Shown: positions 1 to 38,850, counted from the first letter of the stretch. The stretch: DNA of 39,906 nucleotides from a virus (IMGVR_UViG_2737471844_000008:1-39906), one strand, 5' to 3'. The notes: generated from the letters alone by a model not told the origin. Numbers and translations: made by a program.

Positions 1-1173
1 TCAGGCCTTATGGTGGAAATAATCACTCAGGCGGGAAAACATGCCGCCTTCCCCGACAGATTCCAGGGTAACCAGCGGCCAGTGCGCCACCTGTTTATCA
101 CGGTCGTAAAGTTCAATTTCCCCTACCCGCTGATGGGCGCTAATTGGCGCGGTGAGCTCTTTACCATCAAGGGTATATTTGGCTTTGATATGTGGAATTT
201 CGGCTTTCGGTAGCACCATCCAGAACTCTTGTTCCGTTCCCAGGTCGATATTTTCTTTATCGCCATACCAGATGCGTTCCGTTCCGACCTTTTTCCCACG
301 GAGCAAAATTTGCACCGTAGTAAAGTTTTGTTGCCCCCAACGCAGTAATTTTCTTGCCTCTTCCTCACGACCTTTTGCACTGTCAGCCCCCATTACCACT
401 GCAATGAGACGACGCTGCCCATCTACAGCCGAAGCAATGAGATTAAACCCGGCACCAGAAGTATGACCCGTTTTCAGGCCGTCAACATTCATGGTTTTAT
501 CCCACAACAACCCGTTACGGTTTTGCTGGGTGATACCGTTCCAGGTGAGACTTTTCTCACTGTACATATGATAAAACTCGGGCTCGCCGTGGATGATAGC
601 GCGAGAAAGCACAGCTAAATCATAAGCCGAGCTATGCTGGCCAGGTGCATCCAGACCATGCACTGTTTCAAAATGCGTATCCTTGAGATGCAGCTTCTCG
701 GCATAGTTGTTCATCATTTCAACAAACTGCCGTTGCCCACCGGCAATATAGTCAGCCAGAGCAACACAAGCGTCATTTCCGGAATCCACAATTAAACCAC
801 GGCTTAAATCACGTACCGATACGCGATCGCCCTCTTTCAAAAACATCAGTGAAGAACCGACAAACACCGGATTATCTTTCGCCCACGCATCGCGCCCCAC
901 GGTGACAATATCATCTGGCGTAATGCGATGGCTATCGATAGCGCGATCCACGACATAACCCGTCATCAGCTTTGTCAGGCTGGCGGGATTGCGCTGTTGA
1001 TGCTCATTACCCGCGGTGAGGATCTGACCGGTGGTGTAATCCATCAGTACCCAGGACCCGGCATGAATCTGTGGAGGCTGAGGTGAAAAAGGAATGTTTT
1101 CCGCCGCAAAACCAGACGATAAGTTAAAAACGAACAAAGAAGCAGCAATAATAAGACGGCGTTTCAACAGCAA
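1..1173 (-). CDS. dacD: D-alanyl-D-alanine carboxypeptidase DacD (PBP6b), host gene
   Basis: 390-aa ORF matches remembered E. coli DacD along its whole length (N-terminal signal peptide MLLKRRLIIAASLFVF, SLTK active-site serine motif, SGN and KTG motifs). Stop codon sits at window positions 1..3. Confidence 0.95.
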   Translation of the reverse strand: MLLKRRLIIAASLFVFNLSSGFAAENIPFSPQPPQIHAGSWVLMDYTTGQILTAGNEHQQRNPASLTKLMTGYVVDRAIDSHRITPDDIVTVGRDAWAKDNPVFVGSSLMFLKEGDRVSVRDLSRGLIVDSGNDACVALADYIAGGQRQFVEMMNNYAEKLHLKDTHFETVHGLDAPGQHSSAYDLAVLSRAIIHGEPEFYHMYSEKSLTWNGITQQNRNGLLWDKTMNVDGLKTGHTSGAGFNLIASAVDGQRRLIAVVMGADSAKGREEEARKLLRWGQQNFTTVQILLRGKKVGTERIWYGDKENIDLGTEQEFWMVLPKAEIPHIKAKYTLDGKELTAPISAHQRVGEIELYDRDKQVAHWPLVTLESVGEGGMFSRLSDYFHHKA

Positions 1174-1961
1174 ACCCTCAGGAGTTTCAAATAGCTGTTC
1201 TTTTTACGGAAATACTTATGAACTGGCTGGAATAAAGTGCAAGAAAATGTGACTACTCTCTCATTTTTATCTGACATGATCTGTTGCCACTCGCTGTCAA
1301 ATTGTTGCGCTAAAGCTGATTAGCACGGTGATATTTGATACTCTGGCAGACAGCAGAAATAACGGATTTAACCTAATGATGAATGACGGTAAGCAACAAT
1401 CTACCTTTTTGTTTCACGATTACGCGCAATACCCATGAGAACCGCCATGAACAAGGGTTTCATGATTTGTGATTTTAGTTTGGTACGCAATTTGGTACAC
1501 AACACTATTTTCACTTCAGCGGGTAGTCATCAAACTCACCATAACGAGCATCGTTGATGATGTATGTGATCACCACAAATATCACATCTGGACTAGTTCC
1601 GTCTTCATGCGCAGGTATCTGTTCACGCCTCCCTTTCTGCAAATCCTAAAGATGAGATTTTGGGGTTTTGGGATATCTTTTATCCTCAGTTCTCTATCCA
1701 TTATGCAAACCAGTAATGAACCATCACCGTGTGATAGTGAGGCATCTGCCACGATAAGCGCAGAGAAATGATGCAGTGGTGGGCGGACTGGATTGATGAA
1801 AAAGTTGAGTGATCCACCTTAGCTATCGAATGACACAAAGCCTTGTAATCCAGTGCAAAGCTTTGTTTGTCTCAGTTTTGTCTCAGCGGTTACAGCAAGT
1901 ATCGATCGATTGAGACTTGGATGATAGACTTCATCCCTTTGATTATTAGCTGATAGAAGAA

Positions 1962-2324
1962 ATGTTAAAGCTATTTGCAAAGTACACCTCGATTGGTGTG
2001 CTGAACACACTTATACATTGGGTGGTTTTTGGTGTATGTATCTATGCCGCGCACACCAATCAGGCTCTTGCAAACTTCGCAGGTTTCGTTGTGGCTGTGA
2101 GCTTTAGCTTCTTCGCGAATGCAAAATTCACATTCAAAGCTTCGACTACAACGATGCGCTACATGTTATATGTAGGATTCATGGGAACACTGAGTGCTAC
2201 TGTTGGATGGGCTGCCGATAAATGTGCACTTCCTCCAATTGTCACTCTTGTCACCTTCTCCGCCATCAGCCTAGTGTGCGGTTTCGTCTATTCAAAGTTC
2301 ATTGTCTTTAGGGATGCGAAATGA
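1962..2324 (+). CDS. gtrA: GtrA, bactoprenol-linked glucose flippase (O-antigen conversion)
   Basis: 120-aa hydrophobic four-helix protein. ATG start; stop overlaps the gtrB start (ATGA), as in phage gtr operons. Confidence 0.9.
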
Positions 2325-3241
2325 AGATATCTCTGGTCGTTCCTGTCTTCAATGAAGAGGAAGCGATACCAATTTTTTATAAAACGGTACGTGAATTCGA
2401 AGAGTTGAAGCCATATGAAGTGGAAATTGTTTTTATAAATGATGGTAGCAAAGACGCTACGGAGTCAATCATTAACGCTCTGTCCGTTTCAGATCCCCTA
2501 GTTGTTCCGCTGTCATTTACACGAAACTTTGGTAAAGAACCAGCATTGTTTGCAGGGTTAGACCATGCAACCGGAGATGCTGTAATTCCAATTGATGTTG
2601 ACCTGCAAGACCCGATTGAGGTTATTCCTCATCTTATTGAAAAGTGGCAGGCAGGTGCTGATATAGTGCTTGCTAAACGTTCAGACCGTTCTACTGATAG
2701 CCGGCTTAAACGTAAATCTGCTGAATTGTTTTATAAGCTGCATAACAAAATAAGCACCCCTAAGATCGAGGAAAACGTAGGTGACTTCCGTCTGATGTCG
2801 CGAGAGGTCGTGGAGAACATCAAACTCATGCCGGAACGCAATCTTTTCATGAAGGGTGTGCTTAGTTGGGTTGGCGGTCGTACAGATGTCGTTGAATATG
2901 CCCGTGCAGAACGCGTTGCAGGAAGAACAAAATTCAACGGATGGAAACTATGGAACTTGGCGCTTGAGGGGATAACGAGCTTTTCAACCTTCCCTCTGCG
3001 CATGTGGACTTACATTGGTCTGTTCGTTGCAGGTGCAGCGTTACTTTACGGGGCATGGATGATTTTTGACACTCTCGTTTTTGGGAATGCTGTTAGAGGG
3101 TACCCATCACTTCTCGTCTCAATTCTATTTTTAGGCGGCATCCAACTTATCGGCATTGGCGTTCTTGGAGAGTACATTGGAAGGATTTACGTCGAGGTTA
3201 AACAAAGACCTAAATATATATTGAAAGGAATTAAAAAATGA
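2321..3241 (+). CDS. gtrB: GtrB, bactoprenol glucosyltransferase (GT2 family)
   Basis: 306-aa ORF with GT2 signatures ([16 protein letters not shown]) and two C-terminal transmembrane segments; high similarity to remembered phage GtrB proteins. Confidence 0.92.
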
Positions 3242-4689
3242 TAAACATTAAAATAAAATTATTAATTTTGTCCATCATTACTTCCGTTATTGTGTATGGT
3301 TATTGCTTATTTAACTTTAGTCTTTCTATAGATGGAGAGTTTTTTGATAATACCATTCACACAATATCACTTGGCAGGTGGGGTCATGCCCTGCTTCATC
3401 AGTTTATATTACCAGAGCCATACACGCCTTTCTTTTCAGTATTATTATCTTTAGTTATTATTGCCATTGCCGCATGGATGGCATCTATTTTTATAACAGA
3501 AAATACTCACGAGAGATTGGTTGTTATATTTGGTTTTTTTGCCACGCCGCAACTTGCTTATCAATTGCAGTTTACTAACCAGGCAGACACCACAGCTATT
3601 GGTATTCTGTTGGTTGTTATATCCGCGATAACATCATTTAAAGCGATGGATGGTGACAAATCATTACTTAATGCAACCATATCTATTGTATGTCTTTGCT
3701 GTGCTATATCAATATACCAGTCATTTCTTGTTGTAGCGTTTAGTGTATATGTTGGATTCTTTATCCTGAGAACAAGAAATAAAGAAAACAATAAATATAA
3801 AACATCAATAATTAAATTCTCGTTATATAGCACAGTAATATTCATACTTTCACTTGCATTGTATTTTATGTTTTTCAAAATAATATTAATTTCGTATGGA
3901 GTTGATGATAAGACTGCGGAATATTCAAGATCACAAATGGCGTGGGGTTACAGACAAAATAGTTATATAATTAATTATCTGTATAACTACACAAAAAACT
4001 TTTTGCTTGGAGATACGTTTTTTGGGTTTAGGACGTATATTGTTGGAGTGATTGCTGTAGTGGTGGTTTTTTTTAACTTAGTATTCAAACGAAACCTAAA
4101 TAATGCAACGTCATGTTTAATGTCACTTGCTTTGGTGTTATCTCCTTTAGTTCTTGTTTTTTATTTCGGCAATAACCAGATGCCACGCACTTACATTTCA
4201 ATGAGCTTTGTAGTGGCATTTTCAGTTCTGATTATATTCAGAGGCTTGAGTTTAAAGAAAGAGTTTATTATTATCCCGGTCTTCATGTGCCTTTACTCTA
4301 CTTATGCAGCATCGGCATTATTTTATTCTGATGATATTGCAAGATCTAGAGATGAGTTTATATCACGAAAGATAGTTTCTGATGCGCAGTCATTAATTAA
4401 GCATGGTGAGTCTAGTATTATAACACTTTACTTTCATGGACATATAAATAATGAAAACAGATGGAAGTTACGAAACAGTGACACATTTGGAGTGTCTTTC
4501 TTTTCTTGGGATAATGGTGACCCTAGAAGAATATGTGCATATATTTCATATTACTCACTAGCAAAAGTTAGGTGTGAAAAGATATCATCTGGATATGACG
4601 CCAACATAGCAATGAAATTGCCGCCATACCCTTACATAGGATATATAAAAAACGAAAACGGAAAACTAATAATCAATCTTGGTGGGTAA
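3238..4689 (+). CDS. GtrC-like serotype-specific O-antigen glucosyltransferase (polytopic membrane protein)
   Basis: 483-aa highly hydrophobic ORF overlapping the gtrB stop. Markedly AT-rich compared with its neighbours. Third-gene position of a gtr cluster. Confidence 0.75.
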
Positions 4690-4691
4690 AA

Positions 4692-6725
4692 TTACATAGT
4701 TGTACCATCAGCGTATTTCCAAGCTTGAGCCAGTTGATCAAAAAAAACTGGCTTTTTAGTGTCTATGTTATAGATACTGTGACCGTACCCAAGAAGGTTC
4801 TTATTTATAGCGTTTATCTGTGAGGACGTTGCAGCAGTTGGAATGCCAGACCATGCAACAGTAATTAATATCCAGTTGCTTCCAGTCCAGCGGATGTATG
4901 TTCCTGTATCTGTCTGATAAAAAATATGACCAACAGGAACACCAACTGGCCTGGCAGAAGAAAGCCCAACAACCTGGAAGCCTCTGTCGTCAATCCAAAT
5001 TCCAGCCCCTGCGTTGGTGATGAACCTTCCAAATGCCACGTCATAGTAACTGAAACCAGCAATCGCAGACGTAGTGAAGCCAGATTTCCAGGCGGCAGAG
5101 TTATCAATTGATCTAACTCGAATTTCGCGTCTTGTTGCTTCCGTTGCACTCGATGGTGACGCGTTAGATACAGTGTGAATGGAAACGATATCAACCAGCG
5201 TGCTTACAGGTTCTTCACCACGATAGATGTACTGGAAGCCATCATAGTGGGCACTCTGAGAGTCAATGAATGTCGCCCGCACACGATCTGGTCGACCATA
5301 GTAAACAGATAGCGCATTGGCTGATGCGTATGCTTCATTATAATAGCGCGAACTCTTATCCTGAATTCTCAGAACGTTTTTGTAATCCACGCCAACAGCA
5401 ATGCCAGCGGTAGTGGTGGTGAACCTGAACTCGTTATCCGAAAGAATCAGATCTCCCATTTGCCACGTTGGACTATTAATGTCGTCCTCCGCTCCTTGTG
5501 CACCAATCAAAATTCCCGTTGCGAATGTGCGGCAGCGGTTATCACTGACTTTGAATACATCTGATTTCTGGTCGTGTCTGTGCGTGAATAGAGCAAAACC
5601 ATAACCGCCAACTAGGTCATTGTTGTGCAGGTTAACGCGGTGTGTGCCAATGAATTTAAACGCGCGTTCAAACGTTGTTTCTGGTGTTTCAGTATTGTAA
5701 TTGCGCATCACAACACTGTTGTTTTGTACGAATGCGGCGCGGCTGGTTCCTGTTCCATCGGCAAAACTTGATGCGTAGACCGCATGGCGATCAAGCGGTG
5801 CGCCGGCTACACCAAAAATACAGTTGTCGACAGAGATAATCTCACAATCGATAGGGACAGTACCATAGCCATAAACACCTGCGCTCCAGTCCTGTGAAGC
5901 GAGTTGCTGGAATACGTTGGAGTAACGAACGCCATAGCACAAGTGAATCTGTGCAGTCACAGTGTTAACACCAGCACTGATGTTGCGCATTTCTGATCCT
6001 TCATAATGCGCATAAACGTTGTTCACAGTAATGCCAACTACAGCACGCCCAACACCACGAACTTTTCCGCCGTCAATTTTTACTTTAGTGGTGACGCTTT
6101 CGACGCCTGTTCCGTCAAACGTCAGGATCTGGTAGTAGGTGTTTACGTCTGTAGGCGTGAAGTTAACCCAACCGTCAGCCGTAGATTTGATTGTAATGTC
6201 TCTACCATTTAACGATCTGCGAATTGGTGTGTTTATATTCTGTACGTTATCAATGAGAACATCAGCACTGTTCTCAAGAGCGGTATCAATAGCCTGTTCA
6301 AGGCTTCCAGCCTCTGATGTTTTTACAAGACCGCGAACGCCTCCAATGTATGAAAAACCAATAGAAGATGAAAGCCTTCCCTCCAGCTGATCAGGATCAT
6401 ACTTCAGCACATTAGGAAAATAGAACTGCTTCGCCCCATACGCATCGTACACAGCCATAGAATGACCTTGCACAGTTACGAACTTGGCAATCTGTCCGTT
6501 ATATACCGGGTAACCAGCAGCGTTAATGATGATTGGTTGCGAAACAGGAACGTGAGCGCCATCTTCGTTCTCCACATAAACCTGAATCTGGTTTTCAGGA
6601 TTTACAGGGTCAGTGTCAATTTTACCGATATAAATTTTGCCATTGGCTACAGCTTTAAAAGAACGAGCCATAGTGAAAAGTTGCGAAGGCATGCTTACCA
6701 CAACATTTGCGGTGATATCTGACAT
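4692..6725 (-). CDS. Tailspike protein: P22 gp9-type head-binding domain fused to a divergent receptor-binding domain
   Basis: From [13 protein letters not shown] the first ~110 aa closely match the P22/HK620 tailspike head-binding domain; the rest is divergent. The ORF-track start at 6773 is a 16-aa upstream extension; an ATG at 6723..6725 is preceded by a GGAG Shine-Dalgarno. Confidence 0.9.
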
Positions 6726-6846
6726 TTCATTGCTCCAGACGAATGATATGATGCAACCATGATGTGATTGCATACCGAAATGGTACTATTGAGTATTTAT
6801 CCAGTAGGTTACGATGCCATTCCACCCAACTGGTGAGGCATCAAGG

Positions 6847-7107
6847 ATGTACAGCAAATACGACGAGGCGCAGTTTCACTTGAGACTTCCGCATGAACTC
6901 CACGCGAAAATTAAACAGCGCGCGAAGATGAATAACAGGTCGCTGAACTCAGAGATAATTGCAGCGATTGAAGAATCATTGGCTAAACAAAGCTCTGCAT
7001 CAGTTTACATTGACGATGCAGAGCGTATGGCAGAACAACAATCTGATATTGTTAAGAAAATTGTCTTTGATACGCTCAAGGAGCTATATAAAAAAGACAG
7101 CAGCTAA
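6847..7107 (+). CDS. mnt: Mnt-like ribbon-helix-helix repressor (immI-type), orphan
   Basis: C-terminal segment NDAERMAEQQSDIVKKIVFDTLKELYKK closely matches P22 Mnt; N-terminal RHH motif (FHLRLPHELHAKIKQRA...NGRSLNSEI). Start taken at the internal ATG (MYSKYDE). Confidence 0.8.
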   Translation: MYSKYDEAQFHLRLPHELHAKIKQRAKMNNRSLNSEIIAAIEESLAKQSSASVYIDDAERMAEQQSDIVKKIVFDTLKELYKKDSS

Positions 7108-7127
7108 CCATCAGTTACGGAGGATTT

Positions 7128-7205
7128 ATGCAAAGAGATATGCTGAATATTGCGTTCTACATATTTGGTTTTTGCACGTTCCTGGTGTTTGCGAAGCTAT
7201 TCTGA
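7128..7205 (+). CDS. Hypothetical 25-aa hydrophobic peptide downstream of mnt
   Basis: ATG at 7128 with a GGAGG Shine-Dalgarno 4 nt upstream; encodes MQRDMLNIAFYIFGFCTFLVFAKLF; its 3' end overlaps the convergent gp16-like gene. No homology evidence. Confidence 0.3.
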   Translation: MQRDMLNIAFYIFGFCTFLVFAKLF

Positions 7206-9194
7206 CAACGCATCAGACTTGGCACCCTGAGTCAGGGCGTTAATGGCCTTTTGCGCCTGCTGCATGGCTTTCTCAAACGCTGTTGATCCGCGTTTGGTGT
7301 TTGCCATTCGGAGCATTGCATTTCTGAATGGCTCGCTCTCATAGGCGCGAGTAAGAAGTCCGTAGCTTACTGCTGCGCCAGTTGTTGCAGGGTTCATTGC
7401 CGCCCCATATCCGATAATGAACGGGATGGTTTGCTGCCCTGTGGGGGTTGTTACTGCCGCTTTTGCAGCCTGCTGCGTGGATTGAAGGTAGTTTTTCAAT
7501 CCTTTCAGATAAGCAGCATCCTGCCCCTTAAATGTTATTCCAGTCTGGTTTTGCAGGATGTTAAGCTGCCGAAGGAACTGGTCAGGGGATCCGCCAGATT
7601 TCTCCATCGCCTTTCCAATGATGCCATTGCGCATTTGCGCCCTGCCAACACGACCAACTGAGTTATACAGCGTCTTAATTTCCGATTTGTTCTTGCTGAA
7701 TAGCATGTTGTTGACAACTTCCGGCGTCAGGTCTCCTTTCATGAGAACATTCTTCAGCCTGGTATTCTTTAGTTTCGCCGCTTCGTCAGCGTAGACGGCA
7801 TTGGCCTGCTGATATTTACGGAGAGTATCGTTGCCAAGATTCTGACCAATGGCACCATTGATATCGTCGGTCATCGCCTTGTAAACACGTTGAATGGCGG
7901 CATCAGAACGGTTTGGTAACACTGTCCGCTCCCCCTTCACGTCCATTCTGAACTGGCTGCGCAGATCGCTTAATTGCTTCAAATCCAGATTAACCGGACC
8001 ATCAGGGCCAGCATTGCGAACAAGCTCATCACGATATGACTGAAGTTTTGAAATTGTCTCGTTATCAGCTACCTTACCAAGCTTCTGCAGATTAGATATT
8101 TCTGTATCAATCTGCTGAATTGCTCGCGCAGGCTGAATGTTTACTCCAGCCATAGCATTCTGAACCTGCTCCAGTCGATTACCGGCGGCACGACGAATTC
8201 CTGATGTTTTCGCTTTAAGGCTGTCAATAACAACCGCTGGATCATACTCCCCGAATTTATCGGCAAATCTCTGCACCAACTGACTTCTCGCTTCCTGTTG
8301 CGTTGCTCTCATTCCGCTTGTGCCAGCCAGAGGGATATTTTCTGCTGTAGTCTGAGCCATTTTTCCGACGCGGGAAGTAGGTTGTAACAGGTCTGTGGTG
8401 TGCAGAGGCACTCCTTCACGCTCTGCAAATCTGATAGCCTGCTGCGCTTCTGGCGCAATAGCACCACGAACGCCACGATAAGCAGCGCCTAATCCACGTC
8501 CGGCAGCGTTAATAGCGCCTCCAGCCAGAACGCCAACGCCTAAATCGGTAGCGAGTTCTTCCGCATCATCTTTCGCACTATTTGCAGCAAGTGACCCTAC
8601 TGCGTTTTCTGCGAGAAGGCGAGTTGCCCCCTGAGCAATTCGACCAGCAAGTGTTGGTGCCTGTGCCGCCGCTCTCTCAATGCCAGCAGGAGTGAGGTAA
8701 GGCAATGCTTCAGCAAATACCCTTCCCTCTGTAGTTTGTGGAGTCAGCGCACCTTGCTGAAGTCCAAAGTCATGCTCTAATCCCTGCGTTGTTACTCGTG
8801 GTGCTGGTTGATATGTACCATCGCCAATGCCGAGTTTACCGCCAGCCCAAGCCGCCGCGCTTGTTACAGCATCGGCAACTGATGCAGGTATGTTTGCCAC
8901 GTTCACGCCAGCCTGCACCAGTCCACGACCAGTCTCTTTTACTGCTTCACCAAGATCAGACATAAATCCACTTTGCTGTGGTTGTTGCTGTGCTACTGGT
9001 TGTTGTGTCTCCACTGGCTGCACAGATGGCAATGGATAGGCAGCATAGAAAGCTTGCTTAGCCTGCTCTGCATTTTCTCCGGCTTGCGGGACCACAACTT
9101 CATTGAAGTATTGCTCCTGAGCCTGCGCTTTTTGTTCTGGTGCTAACGCCTGATACTGTGGAGAGGCGATAACATCTTTCCATGCTTTAGCCAT
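7197..9194 (-). CDS. Ejection (DNA-transfer) protein, P22 gp16 / Sf6 gp13-like
   Basis: 665-aa ORF in the gp16 position of the P22 gene order; Gln/Ala-rich N-terminus typical of ejection proteins. TAATG overlap with the upstream gp20-like gene. Confidence 0.8.
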   Translation of the reverse strand: MAKAWKDVIASPQYQALAPEQKAQAQEQYFNEVVVPQAGENAEQAKQAFYAAYPLPSVQPVETQQPVAQQQPQQSGFMSDLGEAVKETGRGLVQAGVNVANIPASVADAVTSAAAWAGGKLGIGDGTYQPAPRVTTQGLEHDFGLQQGALTPQTTEGRVFAEALPYLTPAGIERAAAQAPTLAGRIAQGATRLLAENAVGSLAANSAKDDAEELATDLGVGVLAGGAINAAGRGLGAAYRGVRGAIAPEAQQAIRFAEREGVPLHTTDLLQPTSRVGKMAQTTAENIPLAGTSGMRATQQEARSQLVQRFADKFGEYDPAVVIDSLKAKTSGIRRAAGNRLEQVQNAMAGVNIQPARAIQQIDTEISNLQKLGKVADNETISKLQSYRDELVRNAGPDGPVNLDLKQLSDLRSQFRMDVKGERTVLPNRSDAAIQRVYKAMTDDINGAIGQNLGNDTLRKYQQANAVYADEAAKLKNTRLKNVLMKGDLTPEVVNNMLFSKNKSEIKTLYNSVGRVGRAQMRNGIIGKAMEKSGGSPDQFLRQLNILQNQTGITFKGQDAAYLKGLKNYLQSTQQAAKAAVTTPTGQQTIPFIIGYGAAMNPATTGAAVSYGLLTRAYESEPFRNAMLRMANTKRGSTAFEKAMQQAQKAINALTQGAKSDALSE

Positions 9195-11193: not shown

Positions 11194-11649
11194 CTATCTC
11201 CCGTGATTCAGGAAGTCGATTAGTTCTTCGCGTGTGGCGCTGTAAAACGTCACGTCATCCACGCCTTTGAAGTATTTCTTGATGGTTCCTACACGCTTAA
11301 GGCCAATCATTGCGCAGTACATCTGCCCGTGGCGGAATTTGCGTGCAGCGAACGATGTGACGCACTGAACGGTGGTGTTAGTCAGAATGTATCGCCAGAA
11401 CGCCAGCCCGATTTCCTTGCTGAATCCGCGAATCTCTGGCAGGTACATGGCGTGGCAATCGAATGTAAGCGGCTGAATCTCCTGATAGTAAACAATGCCG
11501 CCGAACTGCCCGTGCACGTTCACCTCAAAGTAACGGCAATCAGGTTTGTAGTCGTATCCATCACCGTTGTTGCTCCCGGCAATAATGTCAGGGTGATTTC
11601 CGACTGCTTCGATCAGGTCGATGTTTCGCGTTGGTTTGAACTGAATCAT
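11194..11649 (-). CDS. Tail accessory protein, P22 gp14-like
   Basis: 151-aa ORF between the tail needle and gp7-like genes, matching the P22 order gp26-gp14-gp7. Confidence 0.65.
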   Translation of the reverse strand: MIQFKPTRNIDLIEAVGNHPDIIAGSNNGDGYDYKPDCRYFEVNVHGQFGGIVYYQEIQPLTFDCHAMYLPEIRGFSKEIGLAFWRYILTNTTVQCVTSFAARKFRHGQMYCAMIGLKRVGTIKKYFKGVDDVTFYSATREELIDFLNHGR

Positions 11650-12497
11650 TACTGCTCCGCGATTATCTTGATGGTTGTGGCAGTAAACGCCGCACCATTT
11701 GACTGAATGGTTAACGTACTGCCATTTGTGGCAAGAAAGCCGTCTTTATCCACGCTGAAGAACGTAGCTAACAGGATGTTGTCGGTTGTTGTCGCCGCAT
11801 TACGACTGCTGACCAACGTGTCAGGAACAGAGCCGGAAAAGGTTAGCTGCATTGACCTGTTGGCGGTTCCGCTGGGCCACGTCCCGACGATCGACAGCTT
11901 GAAGAACAAGGTTTTGTTCTCGTTGAACACAACCATCTTGTTGTTAACAGTGTCGAAGAATGGTGCCAACGTCCCGGATGACGGCGTGAGCGTTTTCAGC
12001 AGGCTAACAAGGTTGGTCGGCGCTGTCGGGATGGTTACAGATATGCCAGAGTAAACAACCTCTGACTTTTTGCGAGTAGTGGCATACTCCAGAGCATCAA
12101 TGCGCGTTTCATGGTCTGAAAGCGTGTTTTGAATGGCGATAACTTCATCAGTCAGATAATCAATATCGTTTTCTGCTGTCGTTAATCGGGAATCAAGGCC
12201 GACTATCGCCGATTCTGCGTTAGTGATCCTTGTTTCGTGGTCCTGAATCTTCGCTTCAGCTGATGCCAGTCGAATTTCGTGATCGACCAGAATCACATCC
12301 TGCTCATCGTTCCTGACTTGTGCGTCATAAGCGCCCTGTCCGGCCTCGTTGGCCTTGTTCGCCACGTTACCAACATCAGTACCCTGTGCGATAACGTACA
12401 GCAGATATGACTGCGAGAAGATATTGCGTGGAAGGACTGATGTGTCGAGCCGCGTAGCCTGGATGATTACCGGCACATTGAGATTCGAATCCGCCAT
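11649..12497 (-). CDS. Tail needle protein (P22 gp26-like) with C-terminal knob extension
   Basis: N-terminus [43 protein letters not shown] is near-identical to P22 gp26; 282 aa is the Sf6-type length with a C-terminal knob. Confidence 0.9.
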
Positions 12498-38146: not shown

Positions 38147-38850
38147 AACAAATGTCACTAATTGAGATGGATGGATTCCTGAAAGGTAAATGCTTCCCAC
38201 GAGATTTAAAGGTTAACGAAACAAACGCTGAATATCTTGTCCGTAAGTTCGGTGAACTTGAATCAAAACTCAACGAGCAGCGTGAGTATTACGAGGGCGT
38301 TATCTCGGATGGGAGTAAGCGCATAGCAGAACTGGAAAAACAATGCGCCGAATGGGAGCGAAAAGAATTAAGCAACTTTGAAGAGTGTGCTGCTATGGCT
38401 GAACGTATCGAAGAGTTGCAGACAAACTCTGCACCAGATTCGTTTGGCATCATCGGTGAAAATATTCGAACACAGGATAATCGAATAACGTCAGACCCTA
38501 TGTTTTGTGTGTATCAAAAGCGCGAAATCGTTGTTGATGCTGATTATGACTATGACCGGATTGTCTGGGTTGATGAAGATGGCAATGAAGCCAATAAACG
38601 CCAAAGTCGTCGTCTCGAACTACTTCACGAAAACTTTCGAGAGCCACCAGAAAAATGGCGGCGCGTTGCTGTGAAAGATATTGATGAATTCGTTACCTGC
38701 TGTTTCACCGAACAGGGTTGTAAAGACTACCTGGCAGTCAATGGTCACAATCTTCGCTTGCCATTTATATATGTAAAAAGCGGTTTCAGGAACGCTGAAT
38801 ATATCGGCATAAGAAACTGGCTTGCTGGCATTCGCATCAAAGGAGAGTGA
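38143..38850 (+). CDS. Hypothetical protein (235 aa), early-left accessory region
   Basis: ORF with an N-terminal coiled-coil segment and a Cys-containing C-terminal domain (CCFTEQGC); coupled to flanking genes by overlapping stop and start codons. Confidence 0.55.

Follow-up and report, generated by a model that had tools for sequence, protein, structure and literature searches.

An O-antigen modification cassette facing a chimeric tailspike at the end of a P22-like prophage: canonical layout, rare allele combination

Which O-antigen does the tailspike of a P22-like prophage recognise, and how is the O-antigen of the lysogen changed by the cassette that faces it? These questions are raised by a viral stretch of 39,906 nucleotides (nt), IMGVR_UViG_2737471844_000008:1-39906 (the window), whose positions 1962-6725 carry a gtrA-gtrB-gtrC operon (gtrABC) and, on the opposite strand, a tailspike gene. 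Positions 1425-39906 are a P22-like (Lederbergvirus) prophage inserted in the 5′ end of sbcB, beside dacD. The locus is very probably the receptor module of this prophage, in which glucosylation by the Gtr proteins would mask the O-antigen that the tailspike recognises. As far as sequence comparison goes, this is the canonical Lederbergvirus layout, seen in P22 and HF4s, and hence known; only the allele combination is rare or new. The arrangement is a textbook one, and the finding is therefore less unusual than it was framed in an earlier description of this DNA (the first-pass annotation).

Gene content of the module

The analysis itself shows the gene content, the folds, the breakpoints, how the alleles are distributed and the selective constraint. 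The module includes the following features (aa, amino acids; RBD, receptor-binding domain).

1962..2324, + strand: gtrA, 120 aa, small membrane protein, proposed flippase of undecaprenyl-phosphate-glucose (Pfam GtrA_DPMS_TM, E 2e-13, aa 7-116 of 120)
2321..3241, + strand: gtrB, 306 aa, bactoprenol-phosphate glucosyltransferase, GT2 (Pfam Glycos_transf_2, E 2e-31)
3238..4689, + strand: gtrC, 483 aa, type-specific glycosyltransferase of GT-C fold (Pfam Glucos_trans_II, E 1.5e-25)
4692..6725, − strand: tailspike, 677 aa, start matching that of P22 gp9 (MSDITANVV) at 6725, end at 4692 (map of open reading frames, ORFs)
6385..6725, − strand: head-binding (virion anchor) domain of the tailspike, aa 1-113 (Pfam Head_binding, E 2e-66)
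4692..6384, − strand: receptor-binding part of the tailspike, aa 114-677, right-handed parallel β-helix and C-terminal domain (predicted structure)

The three gtr genes are intact and their start and stop codons overlap as ATGA; the ORFs and the Pfam assignments bear out the complete operon given in the first-pass annotation. The order is that of a three-component Gtr system: GtrA first, GtrB second and a divergent polytopic third protein. Carriage by a temperate phage close to an attachment site and integrase, another feature of these systems, is also found (attR at about 1424, integrase remnant at 1752-1812, virion genes downstream). gtrA is ~84-90% identical in nt to gtrA of SfI, SfII, SfV and HF4s. 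GtrB aligns over its full length with the Synechocystis GtrB structure 5EKP (E 5e-90). GtrC models as a GT-C enzyme; a search of the Protein Data Bank (PDB) with the GtrC profile gave no match. Its first loop contains a conserved acidic IDGEF motif (D32, E34), every family-invariant residue is present, and its profile shows about nine hydrophobic segments and a hydrophilic C-terminal tail of ~120 aa, as in GtrII of SfII. A search of NCBIfam gave no name to GtrA, GtrC or the tailspike. The ratio of non-synonymous to synonymous substitution rates (dN/dS) is 0.17-0.20 for gtrC and 0.07-0.20 for gtrC and the tailspike taken together, which indicates purifying selection on both.

The stop codon of gtrC (TAA, 4687-4689) is followed by two nucleotides (aa, 4690-4691) and by the complement of the tailspike stop codon (4692-4694). 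The convergent spacer is thus of 2 nt, as had been claimed.

Tailspike

The tailspike was described beforehand as P22-type in its first ~110 aa and divergent in the rest, and this division was confirmed. Head_binding covers aa 1-113, and sequence matches in the PDB are confined to aa 1-126: Sf6 gp14 (7sg7, E 1e-63) and P22 gp9 (8tvr, E 6e-50). After aa 126, the RBD has no PDB sequence match, and its best match among phage records is 61% identical. An RBD identical to an already characterised tailspike, which would have undone the earlier description, was looked for and was not found.

The RBD is, by structure prediction, a right-handed parallel β-helix, as in P22-like tailspikes. The tailspikes of HK620, Sf6 and P22 and TSP3 of CBA120 are likewise right-handed parallel β-helices with a C-terminal domain; those of Sf6 and P22 also have an N-terminal domain homologous to that of the window. 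All four are distant from the RBD (~10% identity, Foldseek TM 0.27-0.44, no sequence match past aa 126). Six acidic residues are invariant in 26 RBD homologues: D50, E100, D203, E237, E244 and D453 (RBD numbering; +109 gives the full-length position). No superposition of the RBD on a known endoglycosidase active site was obtained. Structure prediction, which had been put forward as the check on this domain, thus returned the β-helix and left the catalytic residues unmapped on any known active site.

RBD homologues (39-88% identity) bear other N-terminal anchors (PF18668, PF26208 or none). They are found in two phages, Gamaleyavirus KKP 3715 (61%) and the Rogunavirinae siphovirus Phagiculus (50%), in a genome of Enterobacter cloacae (88%) and in a viral contig of 116 kb. 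Given this variety of anchors and phage backbones, the term "chimeric" is justified and the RBD can be regarded as a mobile module. The Escherichia phages KKP 3715 and Phagiculus share 50-61% of aa with the window over the entire RBD, including a common C-terminal motif, KKPxFFDQLAQxWKYADG. They differ from the window by their N-terminal anchors, by the absence of an adjoining O-antigen modification gene and by canonical terminators in the intergenic spacer; their proteins are uncharacterised. Wider scans yielded few further RBD relatives (genome contigs, 0; metagenome contigs, 1; IMG/VR, 5), and the comparison of terminators given below therefore rests on few loci.

Allele distribution and module exchange

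The whole stretch 1100-7200 was found in 1 of 5426 complete Escherichia coli genomes (LR-28, 97.5%). The RBD was found in 2 of them and gtrC in 1; neither gtrC nor RBD DNA has a match in any deposited phage genome. The layout also occurs at the sbcB/dacD site of four or more other complete E. coli genomes, where dacD is followed after ~790 bp by gtrA and gtrB, then by a third gene and a convergent tailspike, both variable, and lastly by an Arc-family gene. When the window is compared with four unrelated alleles at this site, homology ends at 3241-3249 (about the gtrB stop codon) and restarts at 6385-6387 (about tailspike codon 113). The variable block is therefore 3242-6384, i.e. gtrC and the RBD back to back, ~3.1 kb. 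Coliphage HF4s and the E. coli P22-like prophages integrated at the sbcB/dacD or argW sites are alike outside this block (gtrAB 84-92% identical in nt, head-binding domain conserved) and differ within it, with unrelated alleles of gtrC and RBD between 3241 and ~6385.

These sharp breakpoints uphold the mosaic tailspike and the exchangeable third gene of the first-pass annotation. The same annotation had taken the AT-richness of gtrC as pointing to exchange. The guanine plus cytosine (GC) content is 0.446 for gtrA, 0.433 for gtrB, 0.329 for gtrC, 0.46 for the tailspike RBD and 0.484 for the remaining prophage: gtrC is AT-rich as well as exchangeable. However, all gtrC alleles examined are in the range 0.32-0.38 and that of P22 is at 0.318; AT-richness is generic and was rejected as a sign of recent transfer. 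The evidence for exchange is in the breakpoints at 3241 and ~6385.

The window and LR-28 (sbcB site) have the same gtrC-RBD pairing as L003 (argW site), L002 and L020. Aligned to LR-28, the window shows near identity over positions 1401-4800 and 5401-6200 but 17% divergence over 4801-5400, where a smaller mosaic segment lies.

4890..5399, − strand: mosaic patch in the RBD, codons 443-612 (82-84% nt identity to all six other alleles)

Within the patch, five of the six other alleles are 97-100% alike and L005 is at 76-77% to them. The patch allele of the window is also found in one protein from ENA (P0004).

Convergent genes encoding membrane proteins lie 1-2 nt from the stop codon of RBD relatives on other backbones (L022, 5685-6803; L006, 8028-9224; L021, 5698-6894). 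These genes are of the Acyl_transf_3 (acetylase) type in L022 or are third genes of the DUF6056/GT_STM0557 type.

Receptor of the tailspike

According to the first-pass annotation, neither specificity could be read from the sequence. This holds for GtrC, as the sugar position that it modifies is not readable from its sequence, and the receptor of the tailspike is partly accessible through a shared rare O locus.

The two complete genomes that have the RBD, LR-28 and STEC383, carry their prophages at different sites (sbcB and ybhB-bioA, respectively), and the RBD of the window is essentially identical to theirs over residues 114-442. The galF-gnd locus of LR-28 contains rmlBDA, a hypothetical gene, wzy, a GT2 gene, wzx, rmlC and a second GT2 gene. 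This O locus is present in 6 of the 5426 complete genomes, including STEC383. For both RBD genomes to fall in this class, the hypergeometric probability is ~1e-6, strain kinship being ignored. Because both genomes carry the same rare O locus, the locus points to the tailspike receptor, and the rhamnose-containing O-antigen predicted from its genes is the most likely candidate. STEC383 was typed as Onovel26:H30 (PMC8705337); STEC299, which has the same O locus, was typed as O102:H18 (PMC5928088). The name O102 agrees poorly with the locus, since a review gives the O102 antigen a side branch of two residues and the locus has no more than two or three transferases.

In LR-28, the sbcB integration site (L004, 37077-39861) is ~17 kb from the galF-gnd O-antigen locus (L004, 12986-21320). 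At this distance, the tailspike and modification cassette of the prophage are physically linked to the locus that encodes the receptor, and the two could be co-transferred.

Proposed function and alternatives

For the chemistry and the exclusion phenotype, the following steps are proposed. GtrB would make undecaprenyl-phosphate-glucose at the cytoplasmic face and GtrA would carry it over the membrane, as in the established model for these families; GtrC, as a GT-C enzyme, would then attach the glucose, in the periplasm, to the repeat unit of the host O-antigen at one position. Residues 1-113 of the tailspike would plug into the P22-type tail, and the β-helix body would bind the O-antigen and probably cleave or otherwise process it. 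The tailspike is expected to use the glucosylated O-antigen of the lysogen poorly as a substrate, so that superinfection would be blocked and the lysogen's own O-antigen protected. The gtr transcript would probably end at a hairpin and U-run 37 nt into the 3′ coding end of the tailspike gene.

Receptor masking (superinfection exclusion and self-protection) is the most likely function, by analogy with the Salmonella prophage BTP1. In BTP1, GtrC adjoins a P22-like tailspike, protects the O-antigen of the lysogen from it, blocks superinfection and is not phase-variable (PMC4413052). BTP1 differs from the window in that its GtrC belongs to another protein family, whereas the window encodes a full three-gene glucosylation system.

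Several observations weigh against receptor masking of a single O-antigen. The receptor prediction is based on two genomes, and the O locus bears conflicting names in the literature (Onovel26 and O102). The structural neighbours of the β-helix mix lyases, hydrolases, epimerases and adhesins. Finally, gtrC and the RBD are uncoupled in several relatives. In L005, a tailspike 90% identical in aa adjoins an unrelated gene, DNA homology starting at window position 4686 (break at the 2-nt spacer). In L012/L013, a GtrC 88.6% identical in aa lies beside an RBD that is 55% identical, homology covering 2981-4820 and reaching into the last 43 tailspike codons. STEC383 (L027) has a tailspike 95% identical in aa and no gtr cassette. 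There is therefore no need for GtrC and the tailspike to share an epitope.

The junctions of the gtr-less relatives L007 (RBD 54% identical) and STEC383/L027 join position 1885 of the window to 4691, with a 17-nt linker in L027. The gtr promoter and gtrABC (1886-4690) therefore behave as one clean indel. Taken together, these alignments indicate that gtrC and the RBD also recombine independently. Obligate co-inheritance of the two was rejected in view of L005, L012/L013, L007 and STEC383.

The alternative that survives best, and which is still unlikely, is that the tailspike and GtrC target different polysaccharides (e.g. a capsule or another O-type), their adjacency reflecting a shared gene position only. 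It would account for the independent breaks at the 2-nt spacer (L005) and at the 3′ end of the tailspike gene (L012), for the clean gtr deletion (L007, L027) and for the comparison with LR-28, in which gtrABC is 99.9% identical yet part of the tailspike is 17% divergent. However, both RBD genomes have one rare O locus, and wherever a gene abutting an RBD relative could be identified, it came from a family with a known or suspected role in O-antigen modification (GtrC, DUF6056-type, Acyl_transf_3). Functional coupling of tailspike and modification has moreover been published for P22 and BTP1 (PMC2909390, PMC4413052).

It is improbable that the cassette is a decaying remnant, with gtrC inactive or unexpressed and the lysogen's O-antigen unchanged. 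The sole complete genome with the same cassette has a heavily degraded prophage with several pseudogenes (LR-28), and no σ70 consensus promoter was called 5′ of gtrA. Decay is nevertheless at odds with three intact ORFs coupled by ATGA overlaps, with the dN/dS of gtrC and with the presence of all family-invariant residues. It is also at odds with the conservation of the -10/start region aligned to the mapped P22 promoter and with the intact virion genes of the window prophage. In LR-28 (L001, 9585-11557), the genes for DNA transfer, antitermination and phosphoesterase are fused pseudogene fragments, and the gtrABC of this degraded prophage has kept its near identity to that of the window. This hints that the cassette may be kept after phage death.

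A third gene encoding an O-antigen acyltransferase or another non-glycosyl modifier independent of GtrA and GtrB is very improbable. BTP1 GtrC works without GtrA and GtrB (PMC4413052) and the RBD relative L022 is abutted by an Acyl_transf_3 gene, but GtrC of the window matches Glucos_trans_II and not Acyl_transf_3 and resembles GtrII of SfII over 95% of its length. Its model is that of a GT-C glycosyltransferase, and its gene is in translational coupling with gtrA and gtrB, both intact.

The allele pair, rare and uncharacterised, supplies a tailspike and a glucosylation as candidates for an infrequent E. coli O locus that is also found in Stx2h and Stx2e strains (STEC299, STEC383). The tailspikes of P22-like prophages already serve for predicting host O-types and as the basis of reagents specific to an O-type, e.g. 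engineered tailocins and diagnostics (PMC10408124). If the receptor is the Onovel26/"O102" O-antigen, this tailspike would be a ready-made reagent for an O-type presently without one. The comparison also illustrates how receptor and receptor-masking functions are re-assorted: by exchange of the 3.1-kb block between gtrB and the head-binding domain, by breaks at the 2-nt spacer and at the tailspike 3′ end, and by presence or absence of the gtr cassette. It is a well-resolved example and not a new mechanism, and the understanding of the system is unchanged; it is of value for its receptor prediction, which is testable and concerns a rare O-type, and for a clear picture of module recombination.

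Comparison with P22, HF4s and SfII

The order is the same in P22, where gene 9 comes after mnt/arc/ant (immI) and is convergent with gtrC-gtrB-gtrA, beyond which lie the promoter, attP and int. The head-binding domain and an AT-rich gtrC are common to both, and the -10/GATC4 part of the gtr promoter aligns. P22 differs by a 58-bp spacer with an annotated terminator, versus 2 nt in the window, and by RBD and GtrC sequences that are unrelated or distantly related. It also has its own attP and an intact int beside gtrA, while the window prophage is in sbcB. In coliphage HF4s, int-gtrA-gtrB-gtrC is likewise convergent with the tailspike.

GtrII of Shigella phage SfII, the serotype II glucosyltransferase, belongs to the same family as GtrC of the window (Glucos_trans_II; 28% identity over 95% of the length). 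SfII is another type of phage, in which no P22 tailspike adjoins the cassette, and the acceptor sugar is not transferable by homology. Glu40 of GtrII corresponds to E34 of the window GtrC, and Phe414 to F421. Cys435 and Lys478 of GtrII are not conserved in GtrC of the window. Critical residues of GtrII were reportedly described by Lehane et al. in 2005.

Regulation and termination of the gtr operon

Promoter and terminator functions are proposed here from alignment and folding.

1886..1961, + strand: putative gtr promoter-proximal region, with a lone GATC at 1904-1907 and a -10-like TAGACT at 1925-1930 (TACACT in P22), from alignment to the P22 gtr regulatory region
4727..4757, + strand: candidate intrinsic terminator of the gtr operon, inside the tailspike 3′ codons (9-bp stem, 10-nt loop, T5, -12 kcal/mol)

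Phase variation of P22 gtr involves four GATC sites in two pairs and three overlapping OxyR half-sites, within ~115 bp upstream of the start (PMC2909390). This Dam/OxyR signature is not present in the 210 bp upstream of gtrA, where only single GATC sites occur at 1811 and 1904. Alignment to P22, limited to the GATC4 and -10 part, led to the rejection of phase variation of the P22 type. In P22, the minimal GATC4/-10 part alone gave uniform expression (PMC2909390). As only this part aligns, gtr expression is probably constitutive and not phase-variable.

The spacer of 2 nt leaves no room for a spacer terminator of the P22 kind (58 bp). A hairpin, GAGCCAGTT-N10-AACTGGCTT with more Ts after it, lies 37 nt beyond the stop codon of gtrC on the gtr-sense strand. 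It has the structure of an intrinsic terminator (stem-loop and U-run downstream of the last gene). The automated terminator scan was limited to loops of less than 10 nt and did not call the hairpin at 4727-4757. The stem is intact (-10 to -14 kcal/mol) in all six distinct relatives in which a convergent gene lies ≤3 nt from the tailspike; the abutting genes encode GtrC, DUF6056-type proteins, one Acyl_transf_3 protein and one protein of unknown family. Changes in the stem among relatives are a compensatory T-A to C-G and a G-C to G-U. Five of the six relatives without an abutting gene or with a canonical spacer terminator have a degraded stem (-0.5 to -7.5 kcal/mol), KKP 3715 and Phagiculus being among them. 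It is thus plausible that the embedded hairpin and U-run terminate the gtr operon. Three points count against this proposal: the gtr-less STEC383, which is the exception among these six, retains an intact hairpin; a comparable hairpin occurs in 4-10% of synonymous recodings of the peptide; and the loci that support the terminator share ancestry and are not phylogenetically independent.

A broader proposal is tentative, and somewhat doubtful as a whole. The last ~45 tailspike codons would be dual-coded as a Rho-independent terminator for the convergent modification operon on the opposite strand, the spacer having shrunk to 2 nt. The joint would serve as a recombination anchor for the independent swapping of modification genes and RBDs among P22-like, Uetakevirus-like and other prophages, and the receptor may be the Onovel26/"O102" O-antigen. 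For the tailspike gene itself, folding of the minus strand just past the stop codon gave no convincing terminator structure.

Prophage ends and flanking genes

Features at the left end and on the right flank of the module are as follows.

1376..1424, + strand: leftover of sbcB, initial 49 nt, at the attR junction (K-12 identity 99.2%)
1752..1812, + strand: remnant of an argW-type integrase gene, final 19 codons and stop codon, 61 bp (tblastn with the L003 integrase, aa 367-385, 100%)
6814..7107, + strand: Mnt/Arc-family repressor gene (immI region), conserved right flank of the cassette (Pfam Arc and Repressor_Mnt; relatives annotated "Arc family DNA-binding protein")

Positions 1-1424 correspond to the K-12 chromosome: dacD, the dacD-sbcB spacer and the start of sbcB, to codon 16, the whole at 99.2% identity. 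From this alignment, attR is placed at about 1424; the common core of the prophage/chromosome junction, TTTCACGATTACG, is at 1412-1424. The chromosomal match on one side and P22-type virion genes on the other agree with the earlier placement of the cassette at the end of a prophage. Integration is within the 5′ coding end of sbcB (exonuclease I) and not in a tRNA gene; no tRNA gene was found in the window. At the opposite junction in LR-28 (L004, about 38480-38700), the attP side of the phage gives sbcB a new N-terminus, MTDTDKQPTFLFHDYE replacing MMNDGKQQSTFLFHDYE; sbcB therefore remains intact in the lysogen.

The integrase remnant aligns with the 3′ ends of int of L003, L006 and HF4s. It lies just 5′ of the gtr promoter, while the working integrase of this prophage type sits at the opposite end, beside sbcB. 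This arrangement suggests that the receptor module was imported from a phage integrating in argW.

Downstream of the cassette are genes for P22-type ejection proteins, an Sf6-type needle knob, a gp10-like protein, coat, portal, terminase and a CI-like repressor. The tail needle gene (11649-12497, − strand) encodes an Sf6-type knob domain (Phage_tail_NK), and the virion module is therefore Sf6/HK620-like and not strictly P22-like. No Pfam family matches the 665-aa ORF at the position of P22 gp16 (7197-9194, − strand) with an E-value of 1e-4 or lower; in relatives, the ORFs at this position carry the annotation Phage_P22_gp16 or lytic transglycosylase domain protein.

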